64,000 nucleotides of DNA from an archaeon (GCA_035291225.1 DATDSO010000004.1:331130-395129), one strand, 5' to 3'. Numbered from the stretch's first letter, positions 7,529 to 58,243 are shown. A program made the numbers and translations. The notes: a model not told the origin generated them from the sequence alone.

Positions 7529-7981
7529 CTATCTTGCATAACTAAGCAAATCGCGCGCGCCGAAATATTTCTTCTCCGCAGCTTTTATTGTCCCAGAAAC
7601 CCCAATCACGCGGATTATTAATGGAGCATCACCCACGCGATTGAGAAGCGCCAAAGCTGCGCGAATTTTCTCAACGGCAGTGTGGTTGCACCTAATCATC
7701 CCAGTGTTTTTTTCCTCGTTCCATTCATTTTTCATAATCCATGCACCGGCTTCTGCTGCGCCCATCTCTCCCATATAATTCAGAATCGCATGCCACATCG
7801 CATTGCTCAAATCCTGAAAAGGAATTTTCTGGCTTGCAATAACTTCATAAGCTAAATATCTTTTTTTCTCACGCAAAGTCGGGGAGAGAAAGTTCGGCCT
7901 TCCTCCTAGTTCTTGTTCAAGCTTTTCCTGTGGGGTCAGTTCATGCACTTCGGCAGTTTCTTCTTCTACCATTTTCATCAC
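7529..7981 (-). CDS. rnp2: RNase P protein component 2 (Pop5 homologue)
   Basis: REKKRYLAYEV...GMIRCNHTAVEKIRAALALLNRV...GVSGTIKAA pattern of archaeal Pop5; overlaps rpp30-like gene by 4 nt. Confidence 0.7.
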   Translation of the reverse strand: MMKMVEEETAEVHELTPQEKLEQELGGRPNFLSPTLREKKRYLAYEVIASQKIPFQDLSNAMWHAILNYMGEMGAAEAGAWIMKNEWNEEKNTGMIRCNHTAVEKIRAALALLNRVGDAPLIIRVIGVSGTIKAAEKKYFGARDLLSYAR

Positions 7982-8700
7982 TTAACTAATTCAACGCCTT
8001 CCGCGATTCTCGTTCCTGAGAAAATCGCCCTGTTTTTTTCAATTATTTTTTGCGGAATCTCGCTCGTTGCTGAAAAGCCTTTGCTCAGCTCGAGACCCAA
8101 ATTTTCTGCGAGCGCAACAAGCTGGCGCGGATCTCTGATTTCCCAAATATTGCTGGCGCCACTGCATAAAATTGTTTTCACCTTTAAAGCCTCGCATAAT
8201 CTCAAATTTAGAGCAGTATTCTGCAAAATCTGCGAGCGTTGCCTGCGGAAATTGTTTAATATTTCCCTGAAATTTATTTCTATCGCGACATTATTTTCAA
8301 ATGCTTTTTGCATGCAGGCTTCATCCAGTCCAGAATCTAGCCTCCCGAAATCTGGGTGAGCTAAAATATCCACACGCGCATCCTCGCATGCCGCGCGATT
8401 GATCTTGTAATTCCCACCAAGAACAATCACTATGATTGCAAGCTCGCGGACTTTTTCTAATGCTCTCTTAAGCTCCATAGGATCACCAACCTGAATTTCA
8501 ACTGCTGGAAAAATCTCAACTTTTGTATTTTTTTGCGCGTCTATAACAGAGGATTTAAACTGCTTGAATTTTTCCACAGATTCAAACCTGTCCGCGAGAG
8601 CAAAGCCATCCCATCCGAGCCTTTCAGCCATTTTTGCAAATTCCTCTGCTGTGTTCGCGCCGGCGCCAACGTGCAAGTCATAGAACTTCATATAATTCAC
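7978..8700 (-). CDS. rnp3: RNase P protein component 3 (Rpp30 homologue, PHP/TIM-barrel)
   Basis: FYDLHV N-terminus, 240 aa, adjacent to pop5-like gene as in conserved archaeal cluster. Confidence 0.75.
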   Translation of the reverse strand: MNYMKFYDLHVGAGANTAEEFAKMAERLGWDGFALADRFESVEKFKQFKSSVIDAQKNTKVEIFPAVEIQVGDPMELKRALEKVRELAIIVIVLGGNYKINRAACEDARVDILAHPDFGRLDSGLDEACMQKAFENNVAIEINFREILNNFRRQRSQILQNTALNLRLCEALKVKTILCSGASNIWEIRDPRQLVALAENLGLELSKGFSATSEIPQKIIEKNRAIFSGTRIAEGVELVK

Positions 8701-34738: not shown

Positions 34739-36063
34739 AAACAGTTTTCCTTTGCGGTGGAATTGGCAAGCGCATGCATCCGATTGCAGAAGAAAAATTT
34801 CTGCTGAAGTTCGCTGGAAAAACTTTGCTGGAGCGCCATATTGATGCTGCGCGCTCAGCAGGCTTGAAAGATTTTGTGATTATTGGAAACCCGCATAATA
34901 TTGAAAAAATAAAGGATTTGTGTTCAAGACAAAATGGAGCAAATTTTGAATTTGCTGTGCAGAAAGAGCCAAAAGGAATGGCGGACGCAATGCTTTCCGC
35001 CAGCCACATTTTTGACGGAGAAGATTTCATTGTTGTTAACACAAATGATATTTTTGAGCCAAGCGCTTACAAAAATATTTTGGACGCTGCGAAAAATTCC
35101 GAGCACGATTCTCTGCTTACTGGATATGAAGTGCAAAAATATTTTCCCGGCGGTTATTTCCGCACAAACGAAAATGGAGAAATGATAGAGCTTGTTGAAA
35201 AGCCGGGCGCGGAAAATATGCCGAGCAATCTTCTGAATATTGTTTTGCACTTGCACAGAAACACAAAAAAGCACTTCAAGCATTGGGCGGAAACAAAATC
35301 TGAAAAGGATGATATTTATGAGCGGGCTCTGACTGAAATGGTGAAGAGCGGCGGAAAAATAAAAGTTGTTCCCTATTCAGGATTCTGGACTGCAATAAAA
35401 TATCCATGGCACATTCATGACGCGGCAGAATTTTTCATGAAAAATCAAGAGAGAAAAATTTCTCCTAATGCGAAAATTTCCGAGCGCGCGGTTGTTGATG
35501 GAAATGTTGTGATTGAAGATGGTGTTAGAATTTTTGAGAACGCTGTTGTGCGCGGACCGGCTTACATCGGAAAAAATACAATCATTGGAAACAACGCGCT
35601 CGTTTGGTCAGGCTCGCATATTGGAGACAACTCCGTTGTGGGATTCTCAACTGAGATAAAGCATTCATACATAGGAGACAACTGCTGGTTTCATTCAAAT
35701 TATGTTGGAGATTCAATTATACTGGACAACACAACTTTCGGAGCAGGAACAATAACAGCAAACCTGCGTTTTGACAATGGAAATGTAAAAGTCAATGTAA
35801 GAGGAGAAAGAGTTGACACAGGCACAGAAAAATTCGGCGCGATTTTCGGAGAGAACTGCAAAACAGGAATCAATTGCGTTATACTTCCGGGAATAAAAAT
35901 CGGGCCGAATAGTTTTGTCGGGCCGCATGTGCATTTGGACGAAGACCTAGAGCCAGACAAAATGATTTTCCTGAAGCAAAGCCATGTAGTAAAAGAAAAC
36001 ACAATAAAGCCCGGGAAAAGCTATGAGGAGTTCAGAAAAAAACTTCCGGATGTTGGGAAGTGA
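34735..36063 (+). CDS. Bifunctional sugar-1-phosphate nucleotidyltransferase / hexapeptide-repeat acetyltransferase (archaeal GlmU-like)
   Basis: N-terminal nucleotidyltransferase fold (LCGGIGKRM) and C-terminal left-handed beta-helix hexapeptide repeats. Confidence 0.8.
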   Translation: MKTVFLCGGIGKRMHPIAEEKFLLKFAGKTLLERHIDAARSAGLKDFVIIGNPHNIEKIKDLCSRQNGANFEFAVQKEPKGMADAMLSASHIFDGEDFIVVNTNDIFEPSAYKNILDAAKNSEHDSLLTGYEVQKYFPGGYFRTNENGEMIELVEKPGAENMPSNLLNIVLHLHRNTKKHFKHWAETKSEKDDIYERALTEMVKSGGKIKVVPYSGFWTAIKYPWHIHDAAEFFMKNQERKISPNAKISERAVVDGNVVIEDGVRIFENAVVRGPAYIGKNTIIGNNALVWSGSHIGDNSVVGFSTEIKHSYIGDNCWFHSNYVGDSIILDNTTFGAGTITANLRFDNGNVKVNVRGERVDTGTEKFGAIFGENCKTGINCVILPGIKIGPNSFVGPHVHLDEDLEPDKMIFLKQSHVVKENTIKPGKSYEEFRKKLPDVGK

Positions 36064-36067
36064 TTCT

Positions 36068-37252
36068 ATGCGCCTCTACGAATTTGAAAGCAAGCAAATG
36101 CTGAAAAAAAATGGAATAAAAATTCCGCAGTCAGTTCTTTCCACTTCTGCGATTTCTGAAATCCCGTTCAACAGCGAAATTGCTGTGAAAGCCCAAGTGC
36201 TTTCTAATGGAAGGGGAAAAGCTGGCGGAGTGAAAGTTTTTTCCAGCCCAGAGGAAGCGAAAAATTTTGCGAACTCTTTGCTCGGCTCGGTTTTGCTGAA
36301 AGAAAAAGTGAAGTCTGTTTTGATTGAAAAGAAAATTAAAACAAAAAACGAATTCTACATAAGCTTTGCTTATGACACTGACACGCAGCTGCCGGTTTTG
36401 GTTTTGAGCAAATCCGGCGGAGTGGATGTCGCCGAGCTAACAAAAAACAGCTGGCTTGCGAAAATTCCCATTGACCCTTTGCTTGGGCTGAAAGAGTGGC
36501 AGGCGAGAGATGCTGCTGTTGACGCAGGATTCGCAAGCGAGCTGATTCCAAAAATTTCTGATTTTGCCTTGAGGCTTTACAATGTTTTCTCATCAGAGGA
36601 CTGCAGGCTTTTGGAAATAAATCCGCTGAGCCTGACAGAAGAAGGAGAGCTTGTTGCAGTCGGCGCGCTTATAGATTTGGACAACGATGCGGGCTATAAG
36701 CACAAGGAAAGAAATTATCCGCCGCGCATGCCCGGAGTTGGACGCGAACTTACAGACGGAGAAATGCTTGTGAAAAAATCTGACGAGGCAGATTACCGCG
36801 GCTCAATAAAATTTATTGAGCTCGGCGGAGAAATTGGATTTCTCGCAGCAGGTGGGGGCGGGAGCATGGCTGCGATGGACGCTTTAATTATTGCCGGAGG
36901 AAATCCCGCGAACTATGCGGAATTTTCCGGAGACCCGCCGAAAGAAAAAGTCTACGCGCTCGCGAAAGCAATTCTCTCGCAGAAAAATTTGGCCGGCTTG
37001 TGGATTGTCGGGGCAATTGCAAATTTCACGCGCATGGACCAGACAATGCAGGGAGTTGTTGAAGCCCTGAGAGAAGCAAAGCCAAAATATCCGATTGTTG
37101 TTCGGCGCTCGGGCCCGTATGAAAAAGAAGGATTGCAAATGCTGAAAGATGTTGGGGTCGAGCTCGGGCTTGACATTGAAGTGCACGGCTCTGAAGTTTC
37201 AATGACAGCGACTGCGAAGACAATTGCGGAGAAAGTTAAAAAACAAAAATGA
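36068..37252 (+). CDS. Succinyl-CoA synthetase beta-like ATP-grasp subunit (possible citryl-CoA synthetase / ACL beta)
   Basis: ATP-grasp N-terminus (QVLSNGRGKAGGVKV) and CoA-ligase C-terminus (GFLAAGGGGSMAAMD...GGNPANYAEF); start set at first Met after upstream stop. Confidence 0.75.
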   Translation: MRLYEFESKQMLKKNGIKIPQSVLSTSAISEIPFNSEIAVKAQVLSNGRGKAGGVKVFSSPEEAKNFANSLLGSVLLKEKVKSVLIEKKIKTKNEFYISFAYDTDTQLPVLVLSKSGGVDVAELTKNSWLAKIPIDPLLGLKEWQARDAAVDAGFASELIPKISDFALRLYNVFSSEDCRLLEINPLSLTEEGELVAVGALIDLDNDAGYKHKERNYPPRMPGVGRELTDGEMLVKKSDEADYRGSIKFIELGGEIGFLAAGGGGSMAAMDALIIAGGNPANYAEFSGDPPKEKVYALAKAILSQKNLAGLWIVGAIANFTRMDQTMQGVVEALREAKPKYPIVVRRSGPYEKEGLQMLKDVGVELGLDIEVHGSEVSMTATAKTIAEKVKKQK

Positions 37253-38163
37253 TTTTTATGAGCATTCTAATAAACAAAGAAACAAAAGTTTTAATTCAGG
37301 GAATTACTGGACGCAGCGGGCAGGTTGCGCTCCACACAATGAAAGAATACGGGACAAAAGTTTTGGCAGGTGTGACTCCGGGGAAGGGTGGGCAGGAAGT
37401 TGAAGGGGTTCCGGTTTTCAATTCAGTTCACGAGGCTTTGAAAAAATTTCCGGAAATAAATTGCTCAGCAATTTATGTTCCGCCCGCAGCTTGCCGCGAG
37501 GCAGTGATTGAGGCGGTTTCAAATGGAATTAAATTGGTGAATGTAATTACAGAAGGAGTTGCGATTCAGGACACGGTTCAAATGCTGCGCTACGCAAAAC
37601 TTTATGGAGCGCGAATTGTCGGGCCATCTTCAATTGGAATTTTAACTCCGAAGCAATGCAAGATTGGAGTTCTCGGCGGCTCTGCTGTGGACACTGACAA
37701 AATTTATTTTCCCGGAAGCATTGGAGTGATTTCGAAAAGCGGAGGCATGACAAATGAAACTGCATGGGTTGTGCGTTCAGCTGGATTGGGCCAGTCAACT
37801 GTTGTTGGAATTGGCGGGGATGTGATTTTGGGAACTGATTTTGTGGATTTGCTGAAAATGTTTGAGGCAGACAAGGAAACAAAAGGGGTTGTAATTTTCG
37901 GAGAGCCTGGCGGGACTTATGAGGACAAGATTGCCGAGGCTGTCAGGAAAAAAGAATTCACAAAACCGATTGCTGCTTTTATTGCAGGAGTTTTCGCCGA
38001 GAGGCTTCCGCACGGAACGCAGTTCGGCCACGCGGGCGCGCTGATTGAAAATGGAAGGGGCTCGCCTGTGCAGAAAATTAAAATTTTGAAAGAGGCTGGG
38101 GTTTTAATTGCGGAAACGCATGATATGTTGGGGGAGGTTATAAAAAGAGCTATTGAAAATTAA
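37249..38163 (+). CDS. Succinyl-CoA synthetase alpha-like CoA-binding subunit
   Basis: KVLIQGITGRSGQ CoA-binding start and phosphohistidine loop GTQFGHAGA. Confidence 0.8.
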   Translation: MIFMSILINKETKVLIQGITGRSGQVALHTMKEYGTKVLAGVTPGKGGQEVEGVPVFNSVHEALKKFPEINCSAIYVPPAACREAVIEAVSNGIKLVNVITEGVAIQDTVQMLRYAKLYGARIVGPSSIGILTPKQCKIGVLGGSAVDTDKIYFPGSIGVISKSGGMTNETAWVVRSAGLGQSTVVGIGGDVILGTDFVDLLKMFEADKETKGVVIFGEPGGTYEDKIAEAVRKKEFTKPIAAFIAGVFAERLPHGTQFGHAGALIENGRGSPVQKIKILKEAGVLIAETHDMLGEVIKRAIEN

Positions 38164-38169
38164 TTAAAG

Positions 38170-38268
38170 GGCTCGCAGGTTTTCGTAAACTCAAACCCGC
38201 TCGCGACTAATGTGGAATAAAAATATTTTCACACATTAGTTAGCGAGGCTCATGGGTTTACCCTGAGC
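38170..38268. other. Structured intergenic region: GC-rich repeat copy 2 plus two stem-loops
   Basis: ggctcgcaggttttcgtaaactcaaacccgctcgc (38170-38204); inverted repeats actaatgtg/cacattagt (38207-38240) and gctcatggg/accctgagc (38248-38268). Confidence 0.5.
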
Positions 38269-38296
38269 CGAGCAAATCAAAATAAGTTGTGATAAC

Positions 38297-39025
38297 ATGA
38301 AATGGAAAACAAAAATTTCAGATGCGAACGATGAAGGCACAAAGATTAGAGGAAAAGCTCTTGAAGAGCTTGTGGGAAAAATTTCCTATGCTGAAATGGT
38401 TTTTCTTTTGCTGCGCGGAAAAATGCCAACGCCTGAAGAAAGCAAAATGATGGAAGCGCTTTTGGTTTGCGTGGCAGAGCACAGCATTGCTGTTCCTTCT
38501 ATAACTGCTGCGCGCATAGCAGCGAGCGGCTCGGGAAGTTTTGTGCAGGGAGTTGCCGCAGGAATTTTGGGAATAGGCGAGCACCACGGAGGCGCAGGCG
38601 AGGGCTGCGCAAAAGTTCTGCAGGAAAATTTGGGAAAGCCTGCTGCTGAAGTTGTCGCAAAATTTTCCGCGAGAAAAGAAAGGCTGCCGGGCTTTGGGCA
38701 CAAAATTTATACAACAGACCCGCGCACGAAAAAACTTTTTTCAATTGCAAAAGAGCTTGGGATTTTTGGGAGCTACTGCAATTTTGCGCTTGAGCTCGAA
38801 AAAGAATTGGAGCGCGCGGGTGGAAAAAAACTCTGCCTTAATGTTGACGGCGCGATTGCCGCAATAATTTCTGAAATGGGATTCCACTGGAAAAGCGGCC
38901 GCGCGTTTTTTGTGATTCCGCGCACAGCAGGAATTTCCGCGCATGTTATTGAGGAACTGATGGAGGAGAAGCCGTTTTCAAAAAGATTGGAAGAGGGGGA
39001 ATATGAATATTTGGGGGAGAAATAA
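38297..39025 (+). CDS. Citrate synthase-fold small protein (citryl-CoA lyase-like)
   Basis: GEHHGGAGEG (cf. GPLHGGANE) and PGFGHKIYTTDPR (citrate synthase signature); 242 aa, like short stand-alone citryl-CoA lyases. Confidence 0.65.
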   Translation: MKWKTKISDANDEGTKIRGKALEELVGKISYAEMVFLLLRGKMPTPEESKMMEALLVCVAEHSIAVPSITAARIAASGSGSFVQGVAAGILGIGEHHGGAGEGCAKVLQENLGKPAAEVVAKFSARKERLPGFGHKIYTTDPRTKKLFSIAKELGIFGSYCNFALELEKELERAGGKKLCLNVDGAIAAIISEMGFHWKSGRAFFVIPRTAGISAHVIEELMEEKPFSKRLEEGEYEYLGEK

Positions 39026-45670: not shown

Positions 45671-45727
45671 CTTTTTCTAACTAGACAAAAAATTGGTTTA
45701 TAAATTTATTGCGCAAAGCTTTCTTGC

Positions 45728-45916
45728 GGGCTCGTGGTATAGCTTGGTATTATTCGAGGTTATGTTGGAATTTTACCAGCACCTCAACGGGACCTCGCGA
45801 CCTGTGTTCAAACGGCCTTTTCTTTCATGGAAAGAAAAGAACCGCGGAAAAGAAAGATATTAAATCCAAAAAGGCAGATAGCCTTCGGATATATGAAAAT
45901 CACAGCGAGCCCACCA
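45728..45916 (+). tRNA. tRNA-Pro (anticodon CGG inferred) with two introns (33/34 and 59/60) and encoded CCA
   Basis: Acceptor GGGCUCG pairs CGAGCCC then A-CCA; U8, A14, G18G19; anticodon stem CGAGG/CCUCG; T-stem CUGUG/CACAG; introns 45762-45787 and 45813-45899 each flanked by a 4 bp helix with 3 nt bulges (BHB). Confidence 0.65.
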
Positions 45917-45947
45917 AGTATAAATAATCCAAATACAAAGCAAATTT

Positions 45948-46424
45948 ATGAAAGCTGAAGGAAAGTTATCCCGAATAAAAACTGGTTTAAAGGATGCCAG
46001 AAAAAGGGTCGGAGATTTTTCAGGGCGGCATACTTTCCTAGTATATGCGCTCCCGACCATTACCGGTATAGCGTTGGGATTTGCATATTCTGTCGCAGAT
46101 GGTTTTGAACGGATGAGCGAAGAAATCAGCAGAATGAATTTGCCTCAAACAAATATAGATGGTTTCACAAATCCGGATTACCCAAGCGTTTTTGAATACC
46201 TCAGATCATTGCTCATCGGAGAAAATGTCTCTGTTGGCTATGAGAATGGAATAACTTGCCCTTCAGATGGAGGGTGTTATGGGTGGGCTAAGTCTGTTTT
46301 TATGAACTCTCGAAATTACCATAGCAATATACCACCTCTCATTGGGGGATCGTCCGGAGCTGCAATATCGCTGGTTGGCGGATACAGCTGGGCAAGGAAT
46401 GATGAAGAATTGAAAAGAAGTTGA
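45948..46424 (+). CDS. Hypothetical protein with one TM segment (158 aa)
   Basis: Intact ORF; hydrophobic segment LVYALPTITGIALGFAY. Confidence 0.4.
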   Translation: MKAEGKLSRIKTGLKDARKRVGDFSGRHTFLVYALPTITGIALGFAYSVADGFERMSEEISRMNLPQTNIDGFTNPDYPSVFEYLRSLLIGENVSVGYENGITCPSDGGCYGWAKSVFMNSRNYHSNIPPLIGGSSGAAISLVGGYSWARNDEELKRS

Positions 46425-46435
46425 AAATATTTTCT

Positions 46436-48574
46436 CTAAATATTGTCCTTTGATATCTGTTCCTTAACTTCTTTCGCAACAGCCTCACCCAAAATTAAAC
46501 TCAAAGTTTCCACTGGAGTTTTTTTCAAGCTCAAAATTGTTTTCATTCCAGCATTCCACAATCTGCGCGCTCTCACTCTTCCAATTCCTTTCAGCCGCAC
46601 AAGCGGGAGCAGCTCTTCCTTTATTCCATATTTCAATCGCGTGCGCAGTTTTCTTATCTCAGCCATGGATTCTCTTTTTCCCAAAAGCAAAGCAAGCTCT
46701 CCGCAAGAGTAAAGCAGCCAGTCTGCGATATCAACTTTTCCATGCAGCTCTCCGGGGGAGATTTTGAATTTTTCATTCATTTCATTTTCTCCCAATTCAG
46801 AAAGCCAGCCCTCGAACATTGCTGCGGTTTTTATTTCGGCGAGAAAAAATTCATATTCAGAATCCCATTCATCAATTGGCAAAGCCATCAGCTCATTTTC
46901 TTTTCGCGCAAGCAAATCCACATAGTCAGCAGTTTCTGCCTGCCGAACATTTAATTTCTGCCCGAGCTCGCGTGCGCTGGAAATTAAATGCAAAAGCCCG
47001 AAAGCATTTGCATTGTACTGCGCTAGGCTGCCCGCAAATTTATGCGCGGTTTCCGGATCCAAATAAAGTTCAGCAACGCGCTTTCCAATTCTTGTTGGCC
47101 GCAACTCTGTTCCAATTCTAATAATAAATTTCCACTCAGCGAGCTCGTTCAAGATTTTTTCAATTCTCTCCCCTAGCGCTGCTTCATTTGGAAATTGAAA
47201 TCCATAAAAAGTTTGCGCGAAAAATTCTTCAAGCTCTTTTTCTGTTTTTACAAGCTCGCTTCCTATAAGCGCGAGCGCGTGAGTTCTCAGAACGGGCTCG
47301 GCAGAAAGCTTGCTATAAATTTCCTCCGTTTCTCCGAGAATAAATTTTTCATACATTTCTTTTGCTTCGCGTGGGTCCTTGGCAATTAGAATCGATTCTC
47401 CCTCTTTATCAAACTGTGGCCTGCCAGCGCGGCCGCGCATCTGCTCATATTCTAAAACCGGAATGTAAACATAGCCATAGTCTGCGTAGTATCTTTTGGA
47501 ATCTCTAATTACAACTCTGAAAGCCGGTAGGTTTACTCCGGCAGCAAGCGTGGGCGTGGAGGAAATAATTTTTATTAATTTTTCCTTGAAAGCATTTTCA
47601 ATTTCCTTTCTCTGTTTTGCAACCAAGCCTGCGTGGTGGAAGGCTGTCCCATCTTTCACGCAGCCTGCCAGGCGTTTGCACTGCTTTGTCGGGCTGTCCA
47701 AGGTTCTTTCAATTTTTTCTGAAATTTCAAAAAGTTTCTCTCTCTCTTCAGCAGACAAGTGAGGCTTAACAACTTTTCCGCACTTCTCTGCAATCGCTTC
47801 TGCGCTGCGGCGCGTGGAGGAAAAAATCAGCGCCTGCTTTTTTATTTCAGCAGTTTGCCCGGCAATTCCAAGCTCACCTCCGTCCGCAAGAAACCCGTCC
47901 TTCTCTAAAAATTTTACAGCAGTCCCATCGTAAATTCCTTCATGCAGTTTCACTGGCCGCCACTCGCTCTGCACAAGCTTTCCGTTTATCCAGCTCGCCA
48001 AGTCTTTTGCGTTTTTTATTGTTGCGCTCAGAAAAAGAAAATTTATTTTCGGATTCAGCTGGCGCAGTTTTGTAATTGTAATTTCCAAAGTCGGCCCGCG
48101 GTCTGCGTCATTCAGCAAATGAACTTCATCAATAACAACAACTCCGACAGAAAAAACCCAGCTGGCTTTATGCCTCAAAAGGGAATCCATTTTCTCGCTT
48201 GTGAGAACAATCAAATCATAGTCTGCGAGCCAGCTATCAGAGGAGTCCAAATCGCCTGTGCTGATTGCAACTCTCAGGCCGAACTTGGAATATTTCTCCT
48301 TGAAGCTTTCGTATTTTTCCGAAGCTAATGCTCTGAGAGGAACAATGTAAATCGCTTTCGTTTTGTTCTCCAAAACATTTTTTACCATCATTAATTCGGC
48401 AATCAAGGTTTTTCCGCTTGCTGTTGGTGCGGAAATTATAAAAGAATTCTTCAAATCAAGCAAGCCAGCTTCAATTGCTTTCTCCTGAACAGGATTCAGC
48501 TTTTCTATTCCGGATTCTTTGAGTGAAGAAAAAAGTTTTTCTGGGAGTTTTCCTTCAAGTCTAGAAATTTGCAT
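46436..48574 (-). CDS. hel308: Hel308/Hjm-type Ski2-like DNA helicase
   Basis: Motif I APTASGKT, motif II DEVH, later helicase motifs, C-terminal HhH region; start set at internal Met. Confidence 0.85.
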   Translation of the reverse strand: MQISRLEGKLPEKLFSSLKESGIEKLNPVQEKAIEAGLLDLKNSFIISAPTASGKTLIAELMMVKNVLENKTKAIYIVPLRALASEKYESFKEKYSKFGLRVAISTGDLDSSDSWLADYDLIVLTSEKMDSLLRHKASWVFSVGVVVIDEVHLLNDADRGPTLEITITKLRQLNPKINFLFLSATIKNAKDLASWINGKLVQSEWRPVKLHEGIYDGTAVKFLEKDGFLADGGELGIAGQTAEIKKQALIFSSTRRSAEAIAEKCGKVVKPHLSAEEREKLFEISEKIERTLDSPTKQCKRLAGCVKDGTAFHHAGLVAKQRKEIENAFKEKLIKIISSTPTLAAGVNLPAFRVVIRDSKRYYADYGYVYIPVLEYEQMRGRAGRPQFDKEGESILIAKDPREAKEMYEKFILGETEEIYSKLSAEPVLRTHALALIGSELVKTEKELEEFFAQTFYGFQFPNEAALGERIEKILNELAEWKFIIRIGTELRPTRIGKRVAELYLDPETAHKFAGSLAQYNANAFGLLHLISSARELGQKLNVRQAETADYVDLLARKENELMALPIDEWDSEYEFFLAEIKTAAMFEGWLSELGENEMNEKFKISPGELHGKVDIADWLLYSCGELALLLGKRESMAEIRKLRTRLKYGIKEELLPLVRLKGIGRVRARRLWNAGMKTILSLKKTPVETLSLILGEAVAKEVKEQISKDNI

Positions 48575-48641
48575 GCAAATTACTCGTGCCGCAGGTATTA
48601 AAATCAATGCCTTTATAAATTTTCTTTCCTATAAGTTTTTA

Positions 48642-49223
48642 ATGCCTTCAGGCAAACTTCTGGTGGTCTATGGTGTGAACCACGTGCACAAGACAAACAA
48701 TGCGCGCAAGCTTGCTGAGTTAATAAAGCAGCGCGGAAAGAAAGCGGATTTTATAGAATATCCAAATTATTCTCTTGCGCCCTCTGGATTCTATATTGAC
48801 CAAGCCCTGCGCGCGAAATTAAAACTGCGCGAGGAGGAATTGCAGATTTGGTTTACCCTCAATAGATTCCAATACCAGCCTGTGCTTGAGAAAAAACTTT
48901 CAGAAGGCACGCACATTATTGCGAAAGATTATATCGGAACCGCAATTGCGTGGGCGATGGCAAAAGGAGTTGAGAAAGATTGGGTTGAAAAATTAAACTC
49001 TGTTGTCCTGAAAGAGGATGCGGCGATTTTGCTTGACAGCAGGCTTTTTGTAGGCTCAAGCAATGAACGTACTTATGGAGATTACGCGCTCGTTGAAAGA
49101 GTGAGGAGAAATCTTTTGGAGCTTGCGCGCGAACGCGGTTGGATTGTTATTGATTCGAACCGCGGGGAGCAGGAAGTTTTTGCCGATGTTGTGCGCGCGG
49201 CTGAAAAAATCGGAATTTTGTAA
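48642..49223 (+). CDS. Thymidylate/nucleoside-monophosphate kinase-like protein with degenerate P-loop
   Basis: Tmk-like layout but P-loop reads GVNHVHKT instead of GxxGxGKT; start set at internal Met to avoid overlap with hel308. Confidence 0.45.
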   Translation: MPSGKLLVVYGVNHVHKTNNARKLAELIKQRGKKADFIEYPNYSLAPSGFYIDQALRAKLKLREEELQIWFTLNRFQYQPVLEKKLSEGTHIIAKDYIGTAIAWAMAKGVEKDWVEKLNSVVLKEDAAILLDSRLFVGSSNERTYGDYALVERVRRNLLELARERGWIVIDSNRGEQEVFADVVRAAEKIGIL

Positions 49224-49322
49224 AAAATTTTTAATTCAAAATCTTTATAAATCCTCCCAGACAAGGAAATATATTAAAATCTTTCAAAAAATATTTTAAC
49301 AAAAAAACTTTTGTGATAAAAA

Positions 49323-50036
49323 ATGGAAGCAATGCCAGAGTTCATGGGATACGACCGCGCGATTGTGACTTTCTCGCCAGACGGCAGATTGTTTCAGGTT
49401 GAATATGCGCGCGAGGCCGTTAAGCGCGGGACAACCTCTCTCGGATTAATTTTTGATAAAGGAGTTGTGCTTGCAGCTGCTCGGCCAATTCAAGAGCTTA
49501 TGGTTCCGAATGTTGGCAGCGACAAAGTCCACGAAGTAGATTCAAATTTGGGATTGGCGCTTGCAGGATTTTTAGCTGATGGCCGCGTGCTTATGGATAT
49601 TGCACGAGTTAAGGCGCAGATTTTCAAACTTACTTATGATGAGCCTTTGAATGTACAGGGAGTTGTCAGGGAAATTTCTGACCGCATGCAGGTTTATACG
49701 CAGTTTGGAGGAGTGCGGCCTTTTGGAGTTGCGATTTTAGTTGGCGGGGTCGATGAGAAAGGCGCACAGCTTTTCGAAGTTGATCCTTCTTCTGCTTTCT
49801 ACGGATGGCAGGCGCAGGTAATTGGAAGGGGTTCTACTGAGGCGCTGAAAGTTTTGAAGAAAGGCTGGAATGAAAAACTTTCCGAGGAAGACGGAGTGAA
49901 GCTTGCCCTGAGCGCGCTTAAATCTGGGGAGAAAGGAATCCGCGCAGAGGAAGTTGAGGTTGCAGTTATCAACGGATCTGGGTTCAGAAAATATTCTGGC
50001 GGCGATGGGCTGAAGTTTATTAAGAAATATTTCTGA
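49323..50036 (+). CDS. psmA: Proteasome alpha subunit
   Basis: YDRAIVTFSPDGRLFQVEYAREAVKRG alpha-subunit signature. Confidence 0.9.
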   Translation: MEAMPEFMGYDRAIVTFSPDGRLFQVEYAREAVKRGTTSLGLIFDKGVVLAAARPIQELMVPNVGSDKVHEVDSNLGLALAGFLADGRVLMDIARVKAQIFKLTYDEPLNVQGVVREISDRMQVYTQFGGVRPFGVAILVGGVDEKGAQLFEVDPSSAFYGWQAQVIGRGSTEALKVLKKGWNEKLSEEDGVKLALSALKSGEKGIRAEEVEVAVINGSGFRKYSGGDGLKFIKKYF

Positions 50037-50047
50037 AGATTTTTCAA

Positions 50048-50737
50048 CTAAGGTTTAGGCAATTTCTTTGTATCAATATGCGTAAATCCTGCTCGTATAG
50101 GGTAAGCGACATCAAACACGGGAATTTCTCCAACAAAAGCCAGCGGCATTCCATAGTGCGCGTGCCCGTGCAGAGCAAAAGTAACTTTTGTTTTCAGCAA
50201 AATTTTTTCCATGCGCGAATCTCCGAGCCCGCCCCAAATTTGCTGAGGCTCTCCATCCAAAGTTTTGTAGGTTGGAGAATAGTGGGTTAGCAAAATTTTC
50301 TGCCCGCTGCACTGCCCCAAAAGTTTTTCAATTGTTTTCATTCTTTTTTCCAAATCAGAGTGCCGCGCCGCGTCAATATAGTAGCTAAGCGAGCCGCTTT
50401 CCAGGCTCCCGCGCGAGCCAACAATCCAAAATTTTTCCCCCTTTATTTTAACCTGCACTCGCTCGTTGTCGAGAATTTTTATTAGCGGGCTAAGCGAAGA
50501 AAATCTTTCAGCTGCATTTTCCGGCTCATGATTTCCCAGACAGGCAATAATGGGGCACGACCAGTCCTTTTTTTCAATCGAATCCACAAGCTTGATGTAT
50601 TCTTCAATTGTTCCCCACTGCGTCAGGTCTCCTGCAATTAAAAATAAGTCAGGCTCTTTTTCCTTCTGCAAAATCCTTTCAAAAATTTTGTAGTCCCCGA
50701 ACAAAGCATCCAAGTCGCCGATTGCTAGAATTTGCAT
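50048..50737 (-). CDS. Calcineurin-like metallophosphoesterase
   Basis: Motifs GDLD, GDL, GNHE and C-terminal HGHAH. Confidence 0.75.
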   Translation of the reverse strand: MQILAIGDLDALFGDYKIFERILQKEKEPDLFLIAGDLTQWGTIEEYIKLVDSIEKKDWSCPIIACLGNHEPENAAERFSSLSPLIKILDNERVQVKIKGEKFWIVGSRGSLESGSLSYYIDAARHSDLEKRMKTIEKLLGQCSGQKILLTHYSPTYKTLDGEPQQIWGGLGDSRMEKILLKTKVTFALHGHAHYGMPLAFVGEIPVFDVAYPIRAGFTHIDTKKLPKP

Positions 50738-50742
50738 AATAA

Positions 50743-51216
50743 TCACTTTTGTTTTAATAACTCCACTCTTATTGATTTTATATCATCCTCTTTTAGTTTT
50801 GAAAAAGCGGCCATTGTATTCGCATAAAAATCCGACGCATATTTTTTAACCTGATTTATCGTTGAATCTAAAACGCCCTTATCTGGATAGTATTGCAAAT
50901 CACTTCTTGCTTCGGAAGCTTCATAAATCATCTCAATATCTTTCTCGGAATAAAATTTTCTTAAAAAAGTTTTCATGAAAAGCAAAGAGCATGCATGTAT
51001 TTCACACTTAACTCCTATTCTCATGAGAAGCGCATATAGGCAATAGTACATTGTGTAATAAGAGGCGGAAGCAATCCAGATTTTACTCTCAAGCTTTTTC
51101 AACTGCTCCAAGGACTCTTCTGCCATTTTTAGATAAGAGCGCGAAACGTTTTCATTTGGCTCTACAAGCTCCAGCCCATTTTTTGCGCGGAGGCACCACC
51201 TAATATTTAATGCCAT
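50743..51216 (-). CDS. HEPN-domain protein (putative toxin of HEPN/MNT pair 1)
   Basis: All-alpha 157 aa protein with R-x7-H (RIGVKCEIH); overlaps upstream MNT gene by 17 nt. Confidence 0.55.
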   Translation of the reverse strand: MALNIRWCLRAKNGLELVEPNENVSRSYLKMAEESLEQLKKLESKIWIASASYYTMYYCLYALLMRIGVKCEIHACSLLFMKTFLRKFYSEKDIEMIYEASEARSDLQYYPDKGVLDSTINQVKKYASDFYANTMAAFSKLKEDDIKSIRVELLKQK

Positions 51217-51781
51217 AAAAATCTGACCAAATTTTATTTATGAAATCTTCCAAACCTTTAATTATTATGTGGTTCGACACTATCTCGCTTATCATAGGGC
51301 TTTTTTCTTTTAGCGCGGAAATAAACTGCTTCTCAGAATAAATTTTCCCGCTTATATTTAAATCGTACTTTAGCGCGACTTTTTTTATCTGAGCCCTGCT
51401 TCCATCAACAACAAACAAGTCGGTGTCGGAGGTTTTTTTCTCCGCGCCTCTTGCGTAGCTCCCGAATATGCAAATTATTTTTCCATCAATTTCTTTCATT
51501 GCCAAGTTTATTTTAGGATTTTTTTGCTGGAAAACTTTAGAATTTTCATTTTCAGCCTCCAGCAGAAATGATTTCATAACAGGGCTGCGCAGATTAAGCG
51601 AATAGTATTTTTGTTTCCCCTCTATCTTTGAAAGCAAAATATCATTTGCTTCCATTTTCTTCAGAGTTGATGCTATCCATTTCTGGCTTATTGAAACCTT
51701 CCCAACAATCTGCCTTCCGTAAATTCTTCTGTTATAATCTCCCAAAAAAAGCTTCAATATCTCAGCTTCTTTATTGTGCAT
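51200..51781 (-). CDS. Minimal nucleotidyltransferase (MNT) with N-terminal wHTH (putative antitoxin of pair 1)
   Basis: GSYARGAEKKTSDTDLFVV nucleotidyltransferase motif; N-terminal wHTH-like region. Confidence 0.65.
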   Translation of the reverse strand: MHNKEAEILKLFLGDYNRRIYGRQIVGKVSISQKWIASTLKKMEANDILLSKIEGKQKYYSLNLRSPVMKSFLLEAENENSKVFQQKNPKINLAMKEIDGKIICIFGSYARGAEKKTSDTDLFVVDGSRAQIKKVALKYDLNISGKIYSEKQFISALKEKSPMISEIVSNHIIIKGLEDFINKIWSDFYGIKY

Positions 51782-51825
51782 AATAATACACATATGTGTA
51801 GTTTTCTACTCTTTATAAACTTTTA

Positions 51826-52254
51826 TCATAAGCTTGAAATTTCTATTTCGCCGCCGGCTTTAATTTTATTTTTTTCAACAAAACCCGCCTTAACTTCAAG
51901 CGCAAATTTTATCGGGCCCGGCGGAGAATAAATTTTGCACTCTTTCTCAAAGCAGGTTTCCATTCTATCTGTTCCAATAATTCTTTTCTCAGAGTCAATC
52001 CAAATTATGTCCAGAGGAAAATTTACATTTTTCATCCAGAAGCCCTCGCTTGTGGGAGAGGGAAAAATAAAAATCATTGGGCTTGGCGCGGCGCGATACA
52101 TTAAGCCGCGCGAGCGCGTCAGCATATTGTCAGCGACTTCAGCTGAAAAAGTTTTGCCGCCAATTTTTATTTCAGCGGTTTTCGGCTTGAGATAAAAAAT
52201 TAGCAAAAGCAAAATTATTATGAAGCCGGCGAAATAAATTTTGTCCGTGGGCAT
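51826..52254 (-). CDS. DUF192-family protein with N-terminal membrane anchor
   Basis: FWMKNVNFPLDIIWID block typical of DUF192 (COG1430-like). Confidence 0.65.
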   Translation of the reverse strand: MPTDKIYFAGFIIILLLLIFYLKPKTAEIKIGGKTFSAEVADNMLTRSRGLMYRAAPSPMIFIFPSPTSEGFWMKNVNFPLDIIWIDSEKRIIGTDRMETCFEKECKIYSPPGPIKFALEVKAGFVEKNKIKAGGEIEISSL

Positions 52255-52286
52255 TATTTAAATTTGACTTCCCATTTTAAAAGCAC

Positions 52287-52568
52287 GGGCTCGTGGTCTA
52301 GTCCATCCCTTCTTTCTTTTTCCGAAAGAAGAGCTTCAAAAAAGAAAGAAGCGATAGGTTTTCGGAAGAAAGAAAAAGACGGATGGAGAAATTGGAATGA
52401 AGCGCCCGCGCTTCAGCACGGGAAGAGCTTCAACACAATGACGCGACGTTCGCAACGTCGAAGCCGTGGGTTCAAACCCAAGCCTTTTTCGTGAAAAAGG
52501 CTAGGGCTTATCCAAAAAAGCAGATAGCCGCTTCGCGGGTATATCAGAAATTCCCACCGAGTCCACCA
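52287..52568 (+). tRNA. tRNA-Ala (anticodon CGC) with T-loop intron and a long unresolved D-region insertion; encoded CCA
   Basis: Acceptor GGGCUCG/CGAGUCC with G3:U70, A73-CCA; anticodon arm CGACG-UUCGCAA-CGUCG (52444-52460); T-stem GUGGG/CCCAC split by 52477-52551; D-stem GUCU/UGAC split by about 135 nt. Confidence 0.6.
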
Positions 52569-52570
52569 AT

Positions 52571-52810
52571 TCAACTATAGAAGCGCATTGTTCCAAACCC
52601 TATATCATCCTCAGAGACTCTTACTTCGCCTCTCTGAACAGCCTCGTCAAGAAATCTTTCTACCCGGTCTCTCACCCGTGGATATTCGGGATGTCCGACT
52701 GGACATATTTGTACAGTAACTGCCTCGGCGGGGAATTCTCCAGAATTATCATATCTTGCGCGTAGTTCTCTCAGCCTTGCTTTGGCGGTTTCTCTTGAAA
52801 CAAACAACAT
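52571..52810 (-). CDS. Hypothetical small protein (79 aa)
   Basis: Intact ORF between two tRNA genes; GC-richer than surroundings; no motif. Confidence 0.3.
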   Translation of the reverse strand: MLFVSRETAKARLRELRARYDNSGEFPAEAVTVQICPVGHPEYPRVRDRVERFLDEAVQRGEVRVSEDDIGFGTMRFYS

Positions 52811-52934
52811 GGAAATAAATGATTTCTGACAAATTTAAACTTATTTACTTCACTTGCTTTCAAACGAAAATTTTATTTTATTCGACAAAAGCATGGGCGC
52901 GTTCGGCCCGCGGATAGGTCTGTTTAAAAATTAG

Positions 52935-53123
52935 TGGTGGGCGGGCAGAGATTTCCGAACCGCGGAAACCTAAGGTTTCCTCAGTTCAAGGTTTTTCCTG
53001 ATCCTTCCTCAGGTTCTTGCTTCGCAATTATTTTATTTGAACTCTGGACCCCCACATTATCAGTGTGGTGCTCGTTGGCATTTTTCTTTTTAGAAAAATT
53101 TAACCAGGCTGAGCCACCCGCCC
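52935..53123 (-). tRNA. tRNA-Ile (anticodon GAU) with D-loop and T-loop introns; encoded CCA
   Basis: Minus strand: GGGCGGG-U-G-GCUC-AGCCUGGUUA, 27 nt insert, GAGC; anticodon arm CCACA-CUGAUAA-UGUGG; T-stem CAGAG/CUCUG split by about 84 nt; acceptor 3' CCCGCCC-A-CCA. Confidence 0.65.
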
Positions 53124-53172
53124 ATTGATGTTAATTTCATAGAAGTCTTTAAAAAGTTTCAGTTGTTCAAAA

Positions 53173-57236: not shown

Positions 57237-57641
57237 TCAAAAGTTTTTCATAACCTCGCTTTTTGCAAAATCAAAAATCCTCTCGCCATGCTTCACAGCG
57301 CTTTCAGCATCTCCGCGGCTCAGCAGACGGTTCCCATACTCTGCGTCGGATTTTATTTGCAGAAGCGCGGACAAATGTTTCACTGCGTTCTTTATGTCAT
57401 TGCTGTTAGGGTCAATGCTGTTCAGCAGCGCGAGCGCGTCTGTGTGATTTTCGCTTGCGTTCCTTAAACCTTTTTTCCATATACAAAGCGCATCCGCAGA
57501 GGAAATCGCGCAGTGTATAGCGCTTATCACGCAGCCGTTCCACTCCTCCGCCTCGAGCGAGCGGCTCATTGAGTTCTTGCACTCTTCCGCGCGCTTTAGA
57601 TAATCTTTTGCGTAATGCCTGTCGAGGTTTCGGGTTTTCAT
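57237..57641 (-). CDS. HEPN-domain protein (putative toxin of HEPN/MNT pair 2)
   Basis: 134 aa all-alpha protein with archaeal HEPN-like blocks (WNGCVISAIHCAISSADAL, NAVKHLSALL...AEYG); overlaps MNT gene by 4 nt. Confidence 0.6.
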   Translation of the reverse strand: MKTRNLDRHYAKDYLKRAEECKNSMSRSLEAEEWNGCVISAIHCAISSADALCIWKKGLRNASENHTDALALLNSIDPNSNDIKNAVKHLSALLQIKSDAEYGNRLLSRGDAESAVKHGERIFDFAKSEVMKNF

Positions 57642-58228
57642 CTTTCTATCACTGCAATGCCTTTTTTAATTTCCTCTAAAAGTTTTTTATTTTTGAATTT
57701 CGAATATTCTTTTTCTGTCATTACAATAGGAGAAAGTTTATTGCCATATTTTTGCAGGCAAAAGTCGCTGAACTTTTCTAAAGAGGCGCCGACCTTTCTC
57801 TTTTCTTTATCTCTATTGATCAGAATAAATAAGTCTATGTCGCTTGTTGGCCTTTCTTTCCCATCGGGAATAGAGCCGAAAATAATAGTTTTTTTCACGC
57901 CCGCAACACGGCCAAGAAATAACGCTATATCTTTTTTCAACTCATTTAGAGGTGAAGATTTTATTTTCATAGAAAAGTTTTGCAAAAAGCTGTAGGCATA
58001 ACTTCTTTTATTCAGCTTCCATATTGTAGAATTTCCAACTCTGGACGGGTTTATTAAATTAAGTTCGTGGAGTGATTTTAGAACTTTATTTACAGAGTCT
58101 GGAGAAACCCCTGTAATTGAGGCTATTTCCCTTTCGCTTGTTGTAGACTCTTCCGCAAGCAAGTATTTTACAAGTTTTAGCTTAGCCCACGATCCTATAA
58201 GATTCTCCGCAAATTCTTTGAATATCAT
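57638..58228 (-). CDS. Minimal nucleotidyltransferase with N-terminal wHTH (putative antitoxin of pair 2)
   Basis: GSIPDGKERPTSDIDLFIL nucleotidyltransferase motif; N-terminal wHTH (SEREIASITGVSPDSVNKVLKSLHELNLI). Confidence 0.65.
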   Translation of the reverse strand: MIFKEFAENLIGSWAKLKLVKYLLAEESTTSEREIASITGVSPDSVNKVLKSLHELNLINPSRVGNSTIWKLNKRSYAYSFLQNFSMKIKSSPLNELKKDIALFLGRVAGVKKTIIFGSIPDGKERPTSDIDLFILINRDKEKRKVGASLEKFSDFCLQKYGNKLSPIVMTEKEYSKFKNKKLLEEIKKGIAVIER

Positions 58229-58243
58229 GAAATATAGTAGCAT

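Follow-up and report, generated by a model that had tools for sequence, protein, structure and literature searches.

Probable bulge-helix-bulge introns at a shared T-loop site in the multiply interrupted tRNA genes of a putative Aenigmatarchaeota relative

Why should tRNA genes of unrelated identity all be broken at the same place in the T-loop, and can genes so broken still work? The question is raised by a stretch of archaeal DNA of 64,000 nt (GCA_035291225.1, DATDSO010000004.1:331130-395129; 41% G+C), referred to here as the window and numbered throughout from its own first letter, in which the genes for tRNA-Pro, tRNA-Ala, and tRNA-Ile each carry a long insert within the T-loop as well as further inserts elsewhere. 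These are very probably working, multiply interrupted tRNA genes whose inserts are archaeal bulge-helix-bulge (BHB) introns. The source appears, from sequence comparison, to be an uncultured DPANN archaeon related to the Aenigmatarchaeota. The nearest named relatives of its aCPSF1 are metagenome-assembled genomes (MAGs) of Candidatus Aenigmatarchaeota, at 59 to 68% identity, and the search for aCPSF1 homologues returned no relatives between 68% and 99% identity.

Four genes that standard tools pass over

ARAGORN reports 0 tRNA genes in the whole window whether its intron mode is on or off. Rfam likewise gives 0 matches at gathering score in the window, and no tRNA match at E <= 10 between 45000 and 54000. 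What can be found is the acceptor stem: when both strands of the whole window are scanned for a 7-bp stem followed by N-CCA, the only intergenic candidates are 45728-45916 (+), 52287-52568 (+), and 53123-52935 (-). With coordinates re-derived from the window, these are a tRNA-Pro gene of 189 nt, a tRNA-Ala gene of 282 nt, and a tRNA-Ile gene of 189 nt. After in silico deletion of the inserts, ARAGORN recognizes them as tRNA-Pro(CGG) of 76 nt, tRNA-Ala(CGC) of 75 nt, and tRNA-Ile(GAU) of 78 nt. The three spliced sequences all end in ACCA, so the CCA is encoded in each gene, as a sequence-only reading of this DNA had proposed. The exons also keep their identity elements, namely the G3:U70 pair in tRNA-Ala, together with U33, G18G19, a UUCAAAU T-loop, and the encoded CCA.

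Several ENA and JGI metagenomes contain near-identical contigs, and in the 4 to 6 loci fetched for each gene the genes are 100% identical to those of the window. The flanks of these contigs add ~20 kb, for a total of ~84 kb of this genome, and hold one more tRNA gene. This is tRNA-Leu(UAA), at 7920-8126 (+) of contig L036, ~1 kb upstream of window position 1 and between the genes for RNA polymerase subunit D and ribosomal protein L18e. It has introns of 47 nt at 37/38 and 71 nt at 59/60. As with the other three, ARAGORN calls it solely once its inserts are deleted, and what is then restored is a canonical, colinear tRNA, as BHB introns should leave behind. No uninterrupted tRNA was found in the ~84 kb. 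The sample, though very small, thus holds an intron at 59/60 in 4/4 tRNA genes and nine introns in four genes, or 2.25 per gene.

Two other kinds of disrupted gene can be set against these. The exons lie colinear within 189 to 282 nt, unlike those of split or permuted tRNA genes. The inserts, at 26 to 91 nt and with no Rfam match, do not contain a group I or group II ribozyme core, which takes >200 nt.

Comparisons made below draw on relatives, by which are meant the Aenigmatarchaeota-related contigs L007, L008, L009, L033, L076, and L096-L099. Of these, L033 comes from a congeneric species (neighboring proteins 84 to 94% identical).

The T-loop site and its splice motif

In each of the three window genes the T-loop reads UUCAAA, then the insert, then U. 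The inserts measure 87 nt in tRNA-Pro (45813-45899, +), 75 nt in tRNA-Ala (52477-52551, +), and 84 nt in tRNA-Ile (52952-53035, -), which bears out the earlier observation of an interruption after the sixth loop nucleotide by 75 to 87 nt. In tRNA numbering the site is 59/60, a position listed among the known intron sites of archaea (PMC4090602). A BHB motif consists of a 4-bp helix flanked by two 3-nt bulges; the helix of canonical pre-tRNAs takes in the first two bases of the anticodon (PMC4090602), so that on either strand the cut must fall two nucleotides 3' of the helix.

Do the ends of the inserts follow this geometry? The final six bases are UGAA-AA in tRNA-Pro, where UGAA pairs 4/4 with U54-A57; AGAA-AU in tRNA-Ala (UUCA/AGAA, 3/4); and CGGA-AA in tRNA-Ile (UUCA/CGGA, 3/4). 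The pairing of the flanking helices given in the sequence-only reading is reproduced exactly. In tRNA-Ala the UUCAAAU loop is restored by a cut at 59/60 alone; placement at 60/61 was rejected, since the central helix would then pair 1/4. Because of their A runs, tRNA-Pro and tRNA-Ile give one and the same product whether the cut is placed at 59/60 or at any point back to 56/57 or 57/58.

Across the four sampled genes of this genome, a 4/4 central helix is present at Pro 59/60, Pro 33/34, and Ile 21/22. It pairs 3/4 at Ala 59/60, Ile 59/60, Leu 59/60, and Ala 15/16. The latter are relaxed forms, still inside the published range of hBH and HBh' motifs (PMC3239211, PMC4090602). Each motif also has a flanking helix. 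For the 59/60 introns this is the outer one, the 5-bp T stem, with no inner helix (hBH), while Pro 33/34, Ile 21/22, and Ala 15/16 have an inner helix of 6 to 8 bp and a weak outer helix (HBh'). In minimum free energy (MFE) folds of T arm plus intron, the UUC(A)/(U)GAA helix of tRNA-Pro and tRNA-Ala extends the T stem, and the 3' strand has a bulge of 3 nt. In tRNA-Ile, where the T stem likewise flanks the central helix, the MFE fold prefers a register with a 2-nt bulge; earlier caution over the exact Ile site was therefore justified, and the site is best described as at or near 59/60, with 3/4 pairing in either of two registers.

Gene architecture and the introns outside the T-loop

The sequence-only reading had given each gene one second insertion, in the anticodon loop or D-region. 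That description holds for tRNA-Pro and tRNA-Ile, while the D-region insertion of tRNA-Ala proved to be two introns, making three in all. The simplest of the genes is tRNA-Pro(CGG). A TATA-like box, TTTATAAA, can be read at 45697-45704 (+), ~27 nt 5' of the gene. Exon 1 (positions 1-33, 45728-45761) is followed by a 26-nt intron of HBh' type in the anticodon loop at 33/34 (45762-45787), which has a GAGG/CCUC central helix (4/4) and an inner helix of 6 bp that appears as a hairpin in the MFE fold. Exon 2 (positions 34-59, 45788-45812) leads to the T-loop intron, whose outer helix is the T stem, and exon 3 (positions 60-76 with the encoded CCA, 45900-45916) completes the gene.

tRNA-Ile(GAU) is on the minus strand, with a TATA-like box, TTTTTAAA, at 53148-53155, 25 to 32 nt 5' of the gene. 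Its exon 1 (positions 1-21, 53101-53123) ends in the D-loop, at a 27-nt intron at 21/22 (53074-53100). This intron combines a UGGU/GCCA central helix (4/4) with a 3-nt 5' bulge and an 8-bp inner hairpin, AUUUUUCU/AGAAAAAU. Exon 2 (positions 22-59, 53036-53073) and exon 3 (positions 60-76 with the encoded CCA, 52935-52951) lie on either side of the T-loop intron.

tRNA-Ala(CGC) is the most fragmented of the three. Its TATA-like box, TTTAAAT, is at 52257-52263 (+), again ~27 nt 5' of the gene as read from the sequence. Exon 1 (positions 1-15, 52287-52301) supplies one side of the G3:U70 identity pair with exon 4. Intron 1, of 91 nt (52302-52392), sits in the D-loop at 15/16 (or 16/17) and forms a long pyrimidine/purine hairpin. 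Exon 2 is a 5-nt micro-exon, UGGAA (52393-52397), which carries the D-loop G18 and G19. Intron 2, of 41 nt (52398-52438), is at 21/22 or, equivalently, 20/21. Exon 3 (52439-52476) holds the 3' strand of the D stem, the anticodon arm CGACG-UUCGCAA-CGUCG, the variable loop, the 5' strand of the T stem, and T-loop positions 54-59; the T-loop intron and exon 4 (positions 60-76 with the encoded CCA, 52552-52568) follow. TATA-like boxes stand 25 to 32 nt upstream of all four sampled tRNA genes of this genome, a spacing typical of archaeal promoters. On the sense strand, T5 runs occur at ~52317-52325 and 52483-52490 in tRNA-Ala and at ~53091-53098 in tRNA-Ile, inside the pyrimidine arms of intron hairpins.

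How was the D region of tRNA-Ala divided? It is insoluble from the window alone, where AAUGA is repeated and tracts of low complexity abound. A permissive BHB enumerator was overrun by the purine/pyrimidine tracts and failed to place the introns. The region was resolved by the orthologue in L033, which reads GGUCUAG, intron, UGGAAUGACG and has no second intron; the extra 41 nt of the window are thus a third, species-specific Ala intron. A single long D-region intron was rejected, as it leaves no G18G19, and L033 joins UGGAA directly to UGAC. At 15/16 the central helix is GUCU/AGAA (3/4) in the window and GUCU/AGAU (4/4) in L033, with an inner helix CCAUCC/GGAUGG. The L033 copy of this intron has diverged to ~77% identity over the first 91 nt, and its central helix is still 4/4.

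The 41-nt intron has a weak motif. Once the 15/16 and 59/60 introns are removed, the intermediate folds as a cloverleaf with the 41-nt intron in a BHB-like setting: the D stem, a 3-bp helix of G15-U16-G18 with CAC, two 3-nt bulges, and a 6-bp inner helix (MFE). Because G15 and U16 become adjacent only after the first splice, the fold suggests ordered splicing, in which the 91-nt intron is probably removed before the 41-nt intron. Adjacent archaeal introns are removed in order elsewhere (PMC8450103).

An intron family at 59/60

Are the T-loop introns related to one another? Those of tRNA-Pro, tRNA-Ala, and tRNA-Leu are homologous, and that of tRNA-Ile is not part of their family. Within this genome, introns from different tRNAs are 66% (Pro-Ala) and 68% (Ala-Leu) identical, against 51 +/- 3.5% for shuffled sequences (maximum, 60%), and those from like tRNAs of different genomes reach 85% (Leu-Leu) and 83% (Ala-Ala). 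The Ile intron matches all others at 49 to 54%, the shuffled level. The family begins with a hairpin directly after the 5' splice site, CCC-A-AGCCUUUUUC...GAAAAAGGCU-A-GGG. A conserved single-stranded block, YUWAUCCMAAAARG, comes next, then a variable second hairpin and the ending (G)AUAUYAGAAAN.

The structure is supported by covariation. Across six sequences, a small sample, 93% of the cells in the consensus structure pair, and 12 of 23 pairs are changed on both sides; 0/500 shuffles reached the observed level, and slid controls were far lower. A covariance model built from the family alignment matches, in the window, the Ala and Pro copies only. Its scores for Ala (100.6 bits), Leu (88.9), and Pro (73.8) are not independent, these sequences being in the seed. 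The presence of similar introns in tRNAs of different identity within one genome (Pro, Ala, and Leu) is a feature of transposed or paralogous intron families. All six of its full-length members are at 59/60, which is not the Thermoproteales pattern of different positions. A pattern scan of metagenomes for the family gave 58 matches, two of which (L076 and L096) lie in a T-arm context. Pyrimidine-arm/purine-arm hairpins are a recurring theme in other introns as well (Ala 15/16, Ile 21/22, and the D-loop and 54/55 introns of L008).

Might these introns have a life of their own? One reading is that the excised 59/60 introns, probably circular, act as stable structured RNAs, in the manner of the box C/D RNA of the archaeal tRNA-Trp intron. 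Their length of 71 to 87 nt, against 12 to 25 nt for typical archaeal tRNA introns (PMC4090602), would suit such a role, as would the covariation of hairpin 1 (7 of 13 pairs changed on both sides) and the conservation of YUWAUCCMAAAARG and of the 3' AUAUYAGAAA across Pro, Ala, Leu, and genomes. A block of 28 nt is even identical between the Leu(UAA) intron and the Leu(CAA) intron of another genome. However, such conservation, as far as it involves L076 and L096, may simply reflect recent common descent, and 59/60 is occupied in tRNA-Ile by an unrelated intron. Nor do the known RNA classes appear. No box C/D arrangement (C box RUGAUGA, D box CUGA) was seen by eye in the Pro and Ala introns; the Ile T-loop intron has CUGA twice and no C box. 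H/ACA boxes were not noticed on reading the intron sequences, and Rfam gives no snoRNA match at threshold and no family match to the introns even at E <= 10. A function for the excised RNA is, on this evidence, unlikely.

Relatives and intron turnover

If the 59/60 intron is a feature of the lineage, as the sequence-only reading had it, relatives should carry it too. Several of those sampled do. L033 keeps the 59/60 introns of both tRNA-Ala and tRNA-Ile. In L007, a tRNA-Ile(GAU) gene at 2557-2760 (+), downstream of aCPSF1 as in the window, has four introns (D-loop, 30/31, 37/38, and 59/60), and in L008 the tRNA-Lys(UUU) gene, 260 nt at 11293-11034 (-), also has four (D-loop, 37/38, 54/55, and 59/60). 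The metagenome contig L076 has a tRNA-Leu(CAA) with three introns, 59/60 included. For these last three genes a tRNA is obtained only with the 59/60 intron deleted. The metagenome contig L096 holds a tRNA-like gene with a family-type insert at 59/60 whose full cloverleaf could not be assembled. It lies on the reverse strand, at ~3250-3500 of the reverse complement, shows an apparent further 14-nt intron in the T stem (52/53), and has an acceptor stem that was not assembled; the gene may be more complex or partly split. L009, a relative at the same protein distance, counts against a lineage-wide feature, since it has an ordinary uninterrupted tRNA-Pro(UGG). No tRNA was found in three further loci of Aenigmatarchaeota type (L097-L099). 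Within this small sample the claim of a lineage-wide feature is supported, by the four genes of this genome and by L033, L007, L008, and L076, with L009 weighing against it.

Between the two congeneric species, introns have come and gone. The 41-nt Ala intron of the window is absent from L033, the Ile D-loop intron is shorter there, and the L033 tRNA-Ile has an extra 13-nt canonical intron at 37/38 (CUGA/UCAG, 4/4) that is absent from the window. Moreover, the L033 genes for tRNA-Ile (438-687, -) and tRNA-Ala (1352-1641, -) each have a 58- to 60-nt near-perfect palindrome, UGACAUYRUGUGAUGU...ACAUCAAAYRAUGUCA, inside the 59/60 intron, which brings the Ile intron to 146 nt. The palindrome, which has no copy in the window or any other fetched locus, looks from its sequence like a miniature inverted-repeat element that landed inside the introns. 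The L033 tRNA-Ile gene with its promoter-side flank (438-687) is also inverted relative to aCPSF1 by comparison with the window (52935-53123) and L007.

This turnover invites a harsher interpretation, namely that small insertion elements broke intact tRNA genes, leaving pseudogenes here and functional copies elsewhere. The palindromes within both L033 T-loop introns do show that small elements land here. Intron content does differ between the two species, the motif of the 41-nt Ala insert is weak, and the sample is ~84 kb of a genome. Nevertheless, all the exons are intact and splice in silico to canonical tRNAs with identity elements and CCA, the insert ends follow BHB geometry, and the promoter boxes are kept. 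All four tRNA genes (4/4) in 84 kb are of the interrupted type, with no intact one present. Orthologues at ~63% protein identity retain the same-site intron, and the intron helices covary. Broken genes of that kind are a highly improbable account of what is seen, and functional genes with introns remain the preferred one.

A portable splice site?

How might such precursors be matured? The route that we infer takes in transcription, cleavage and ligation, the enzyme responsible, the sequence in which introns leave, and the portability of the T-loop site, and would run as follows. Each gene would be transcribed from its own TATA-box promoter as a precursor of 189 to 282 nt, the tRNA splicing endonuclease EndA would excise the inserts at hBH or HBh' motifs of relaxed form, and an RtcB-type ligase would rejoin the exons. 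Cutting by EndA followed by ligation is the established pathway of archaeal tRNA splicing. In the hBH motif at 59/60 the T stem acts as the outer helix, and U54-U55-C56-A57 forms the central helix with (U/A)GAA (CGGA in tRNA-Ile), six nucleotides before the intron 3' end. The 5' bulge consists of A58-A59 and the first intron base, and the 3' bulge of the last two intron bases and U60. The place of the inner helix is taken by a junction bearing one or two intron hairpins.

Why position 59/60? The exon half of the motif is the near-invariant U54-U55-C56-R57, backed by the T stem that each tRNA has. Since this half is near-invariant, an intron ending in NGAA-NN could fit any tRNA at 59/60 with no tRNA-specific complementarity, whereas an intron at 37/38 would have to match each anticodon loop. 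Portability of this sort would account both for the use of one site by unrelated tRNAs and for the presence of a single family there in tRNA-Pro, tRNA-Ala, and tRNA-Leu; with the unrelated Ile intron at 59/60 it would fit equally well.

Alternatively, the position itself may have been selected, for example because an insert there destroys attachment sites of viruses and plasmids in the T arm and 3' half, or because it gates T-loop modification or folding. An insert at 59/60 is present in 10/10 disrupted tRNA or tRNA-like genes sampled in the clade (one of them, L096, undecoded), and mobile elements are known to integrate at tRNA genes in archaea (PMC3293823). Since the Ile intron there is unrelated, what these genes have in common is the site and not a single intron lineage. 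Portability, however, accounts for the same pattern with no need of selection, and L009 at a similar distance has its uninterrupted tRNA-Pro. We consider selection of the site a quite unlikely conjecture and keep to portability as the explanation.

What about the enzyme? No EndA gene (PF01974, PF02778) was found in the window or its +/-10-kb flanks (~84 kb), and tblastn with the Methanocaldococcus jannaschii EndA as query (checked against PDB 1a79) had no match at E < 0.1 when ~1 Mb of fetched loci was searched. Broad-specificity types of EndA accompany disrupted tRNA genes (PMC3239211, PMC5829648), and among DPANN archaea additional loops in EndA have been associated with larger numbers of disrupted tRNA genes (PMC5829648). 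By analogy, and in line with the relaxed specificity suggested by the sequence-only reading, this lineage is predicted to have a splicing endonuclease of broad specificity, a class that comprises the alpha-beta heterotetramer, epsilon2, and alpha4 with the L3 loop.

Several observations weigh against working introns and deserve to be gathered in one place. The case is built on DNA; that splicing and ligation occur, and precisely where the cuts fall, is deduced from it. Neither an EndA nor an RtcB gene was seen in the ~84 kb. Three of the four 59/60 motifs sampled in this genome pair just 3/4 in the central helix and lack an inner helix. Several cut sites are ambiguous by 1 to 3 nt (with an identical mature product), Ile 59/60 has two equally good registers, and the Pro 33/34 motif competes with the normal anticodon stem in the MFE fold. 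The T5 runs within the Ala and Ile genes look like the oligo-T terminators of archaea. The 41-nt Ala intron is both weak in motif and species-specific, for which reason tRNA-Ala(CGC) could be heading to decay. Finally, four tRNA genes have been sampled from this genome, and uninterrupted paralogues may exist elsewhere in it.

Comparison with known systems

Introns at 59/60 are already known in ARMAN-2 and Crenarchaeota, and intron families are known in the Thermoproteales. The closest parallel is ARMAN-2 (Candidatus Micrarchaeum acidiphilum; Fujishima et al. 2011, PMC3239211), likewise a DPANN archaeon, with a 59/60 hBH intron whose outer helix is the T stem. There, pre-tRNA-Cys(GCA) is interrupted at 59/60 and pre-tRNA-Pro(GGG) at both 53/54 and 59/60, just as the tRNA-Lys of L008 has two T-loop introns (54/55 and 59/60). 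The two archaea are also alike in having several introns in a gene and a large number of disrupted tRNA genes. The ARMAN-2 EndA correctly cuts the 59/60 hBH intron of pre-tRNA-Cys in vitro (PMC3239211), whereas cleavage of the introns described here is a prediction. The two also differ in scale. The ARMAN-2 tRNA-Cys intron is 13 nt long; the introns here carry conserved hairpins and span 71 to 87 nt, with L033 reaching 146 nt. Position 59/60 is one of many in ARMAN-2, where 56% of the genes are disrupted, while every sampled gene of the window's genome has it.

The Thermoproteales (Sugahara et al. 2008; Fujishima et al. 2010, summarized in PMC4033280 and PMC4090602) likewise have two to three noncanonical BHB, hBH, or HBh' introns in a gene. 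Similar introns occur there in tRNAs of different identity, implying spread (PMC4033280), and neighboring introns are removed in order (PMC8450103). Those archaea belong to the TACK group, however, and their families occupy various positions, whereas the present family belongs to a DPANN lineage and is seen at 59/60 only. The published maximum is three introns per tRNA gene (PMC4033280, PMC8450103; the tRNAscan-SE 2.0 paper agrees), and the record intron load is 71 introns in 46 genes (PMC8450103). The L007 and L008 genes, with four introns each, exceed the former, and beside the latter stand the 2.25 introns per gene of this genome, from a very small sample.

Intron differences between populations or species have been described before, in Caldiarchaeum subterraneum (Sugahara et al. 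2012, PMC3293823), in which close genomes differ in the intron number of the same gene, as the window and L033 do for tRNA-Ala and tRNA-Ile. A recombinase-encoding mobile element and a gene fragment have been implicated in that case; here there is none nearby, just the short palindromes in the L033 introns. The C/D intron of archaeal tRNA-Trp (cited in PMC4090602) is likewise long and conserved (~65 nt), but it sits at 37/38 and has C/D boxes, while the introns described here are at 59/60, with no C/D boxes by eye and no Rfam match. In the literature searched, no description of the tRNA introns of Aenigmatarchaeota was found. The kind of intron is known; new are the lineage, a T-loop site used so uniformly, an intron family both long and conserved, and the degree of fragmentation.

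Neighboring genes

The window also encodes proteasome subunits, aCPSF1, RNase P proteins, and prolyl-tRNA synthetase (ProRS). The RNase P subunits, of the Rpp14 and Rpp30 families, are at 7529-8700 (-) and place part of the tRNA-processing machinery near. Between tRNA-Ala and tRNA-Ile lies a 79-amino-acid open reading frame (ORF) with no Pfam match (52571-52810, -), gene-called in all the near-identical contigs; tblastx finds no match to it at E < 1e-10 in the corresponding L033 interval, though an ORF this short could escape. Two adjacent pairs of HEPN and nucleotidyltransferase (MNT-like) genes, typical toxin-antitoxin modules, flank the tRNA-Ala/tRNA-Ile region at 50743-51793 and 57237-58243. 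Farther off, at 36023-39025, genes with ATP-grasp/citrate-binding, CoA-ligase, and citrate-synthase-like domains stand in a row, resembling ATP-citrate lyase or citryl-CoA synthetase/lyase.

Implications

How far might the pattern go? In its boldest form, the 59/60 intron would be obligatory in essentially every tRNA gene of the lineage, carried by a portable, structured BHB family that spreads from tRNA to tRNA by pairing its central helix with the invariant UUCR of the T-loop (a "homing" BHB intron), with the excised, probably circular product or its conserved hairpins perhaps having a role of their own. We think this doubtful. If true, T-loop splicing would be a universal requirement of tRNA maturation in the lineage, and fragmentation would go past the published record, with four introns in a gene, more than two per gene on average, and 5-nt exons.

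The genes as they stand have consequences at several levels. (i) None of them is detected by ARAGORN or by the Rfam tRNA model, and MAGs of this lineage would consequently look tRNA poor or incomplete. A full tRNA set could not be compiled for some DPANN genomes (PMC5829648), and genes missed by annotation fit that report. (ii) The known range of tRNA gene fragmentation is extended, to nine introns in four genes, a 5-nt exon, genes with four introns, and (in L033) a T-loop intron of 146 nt. (iii) Two congeneric species that differ in intron number, with palindromes inside the introns of one, offer a natural system for the study of intron gain and loss. (iv) Portability would give a simple, testable reason for the recurrence of introns at 59/60: the exon half of the splice motif is the invariant T-loop itself.

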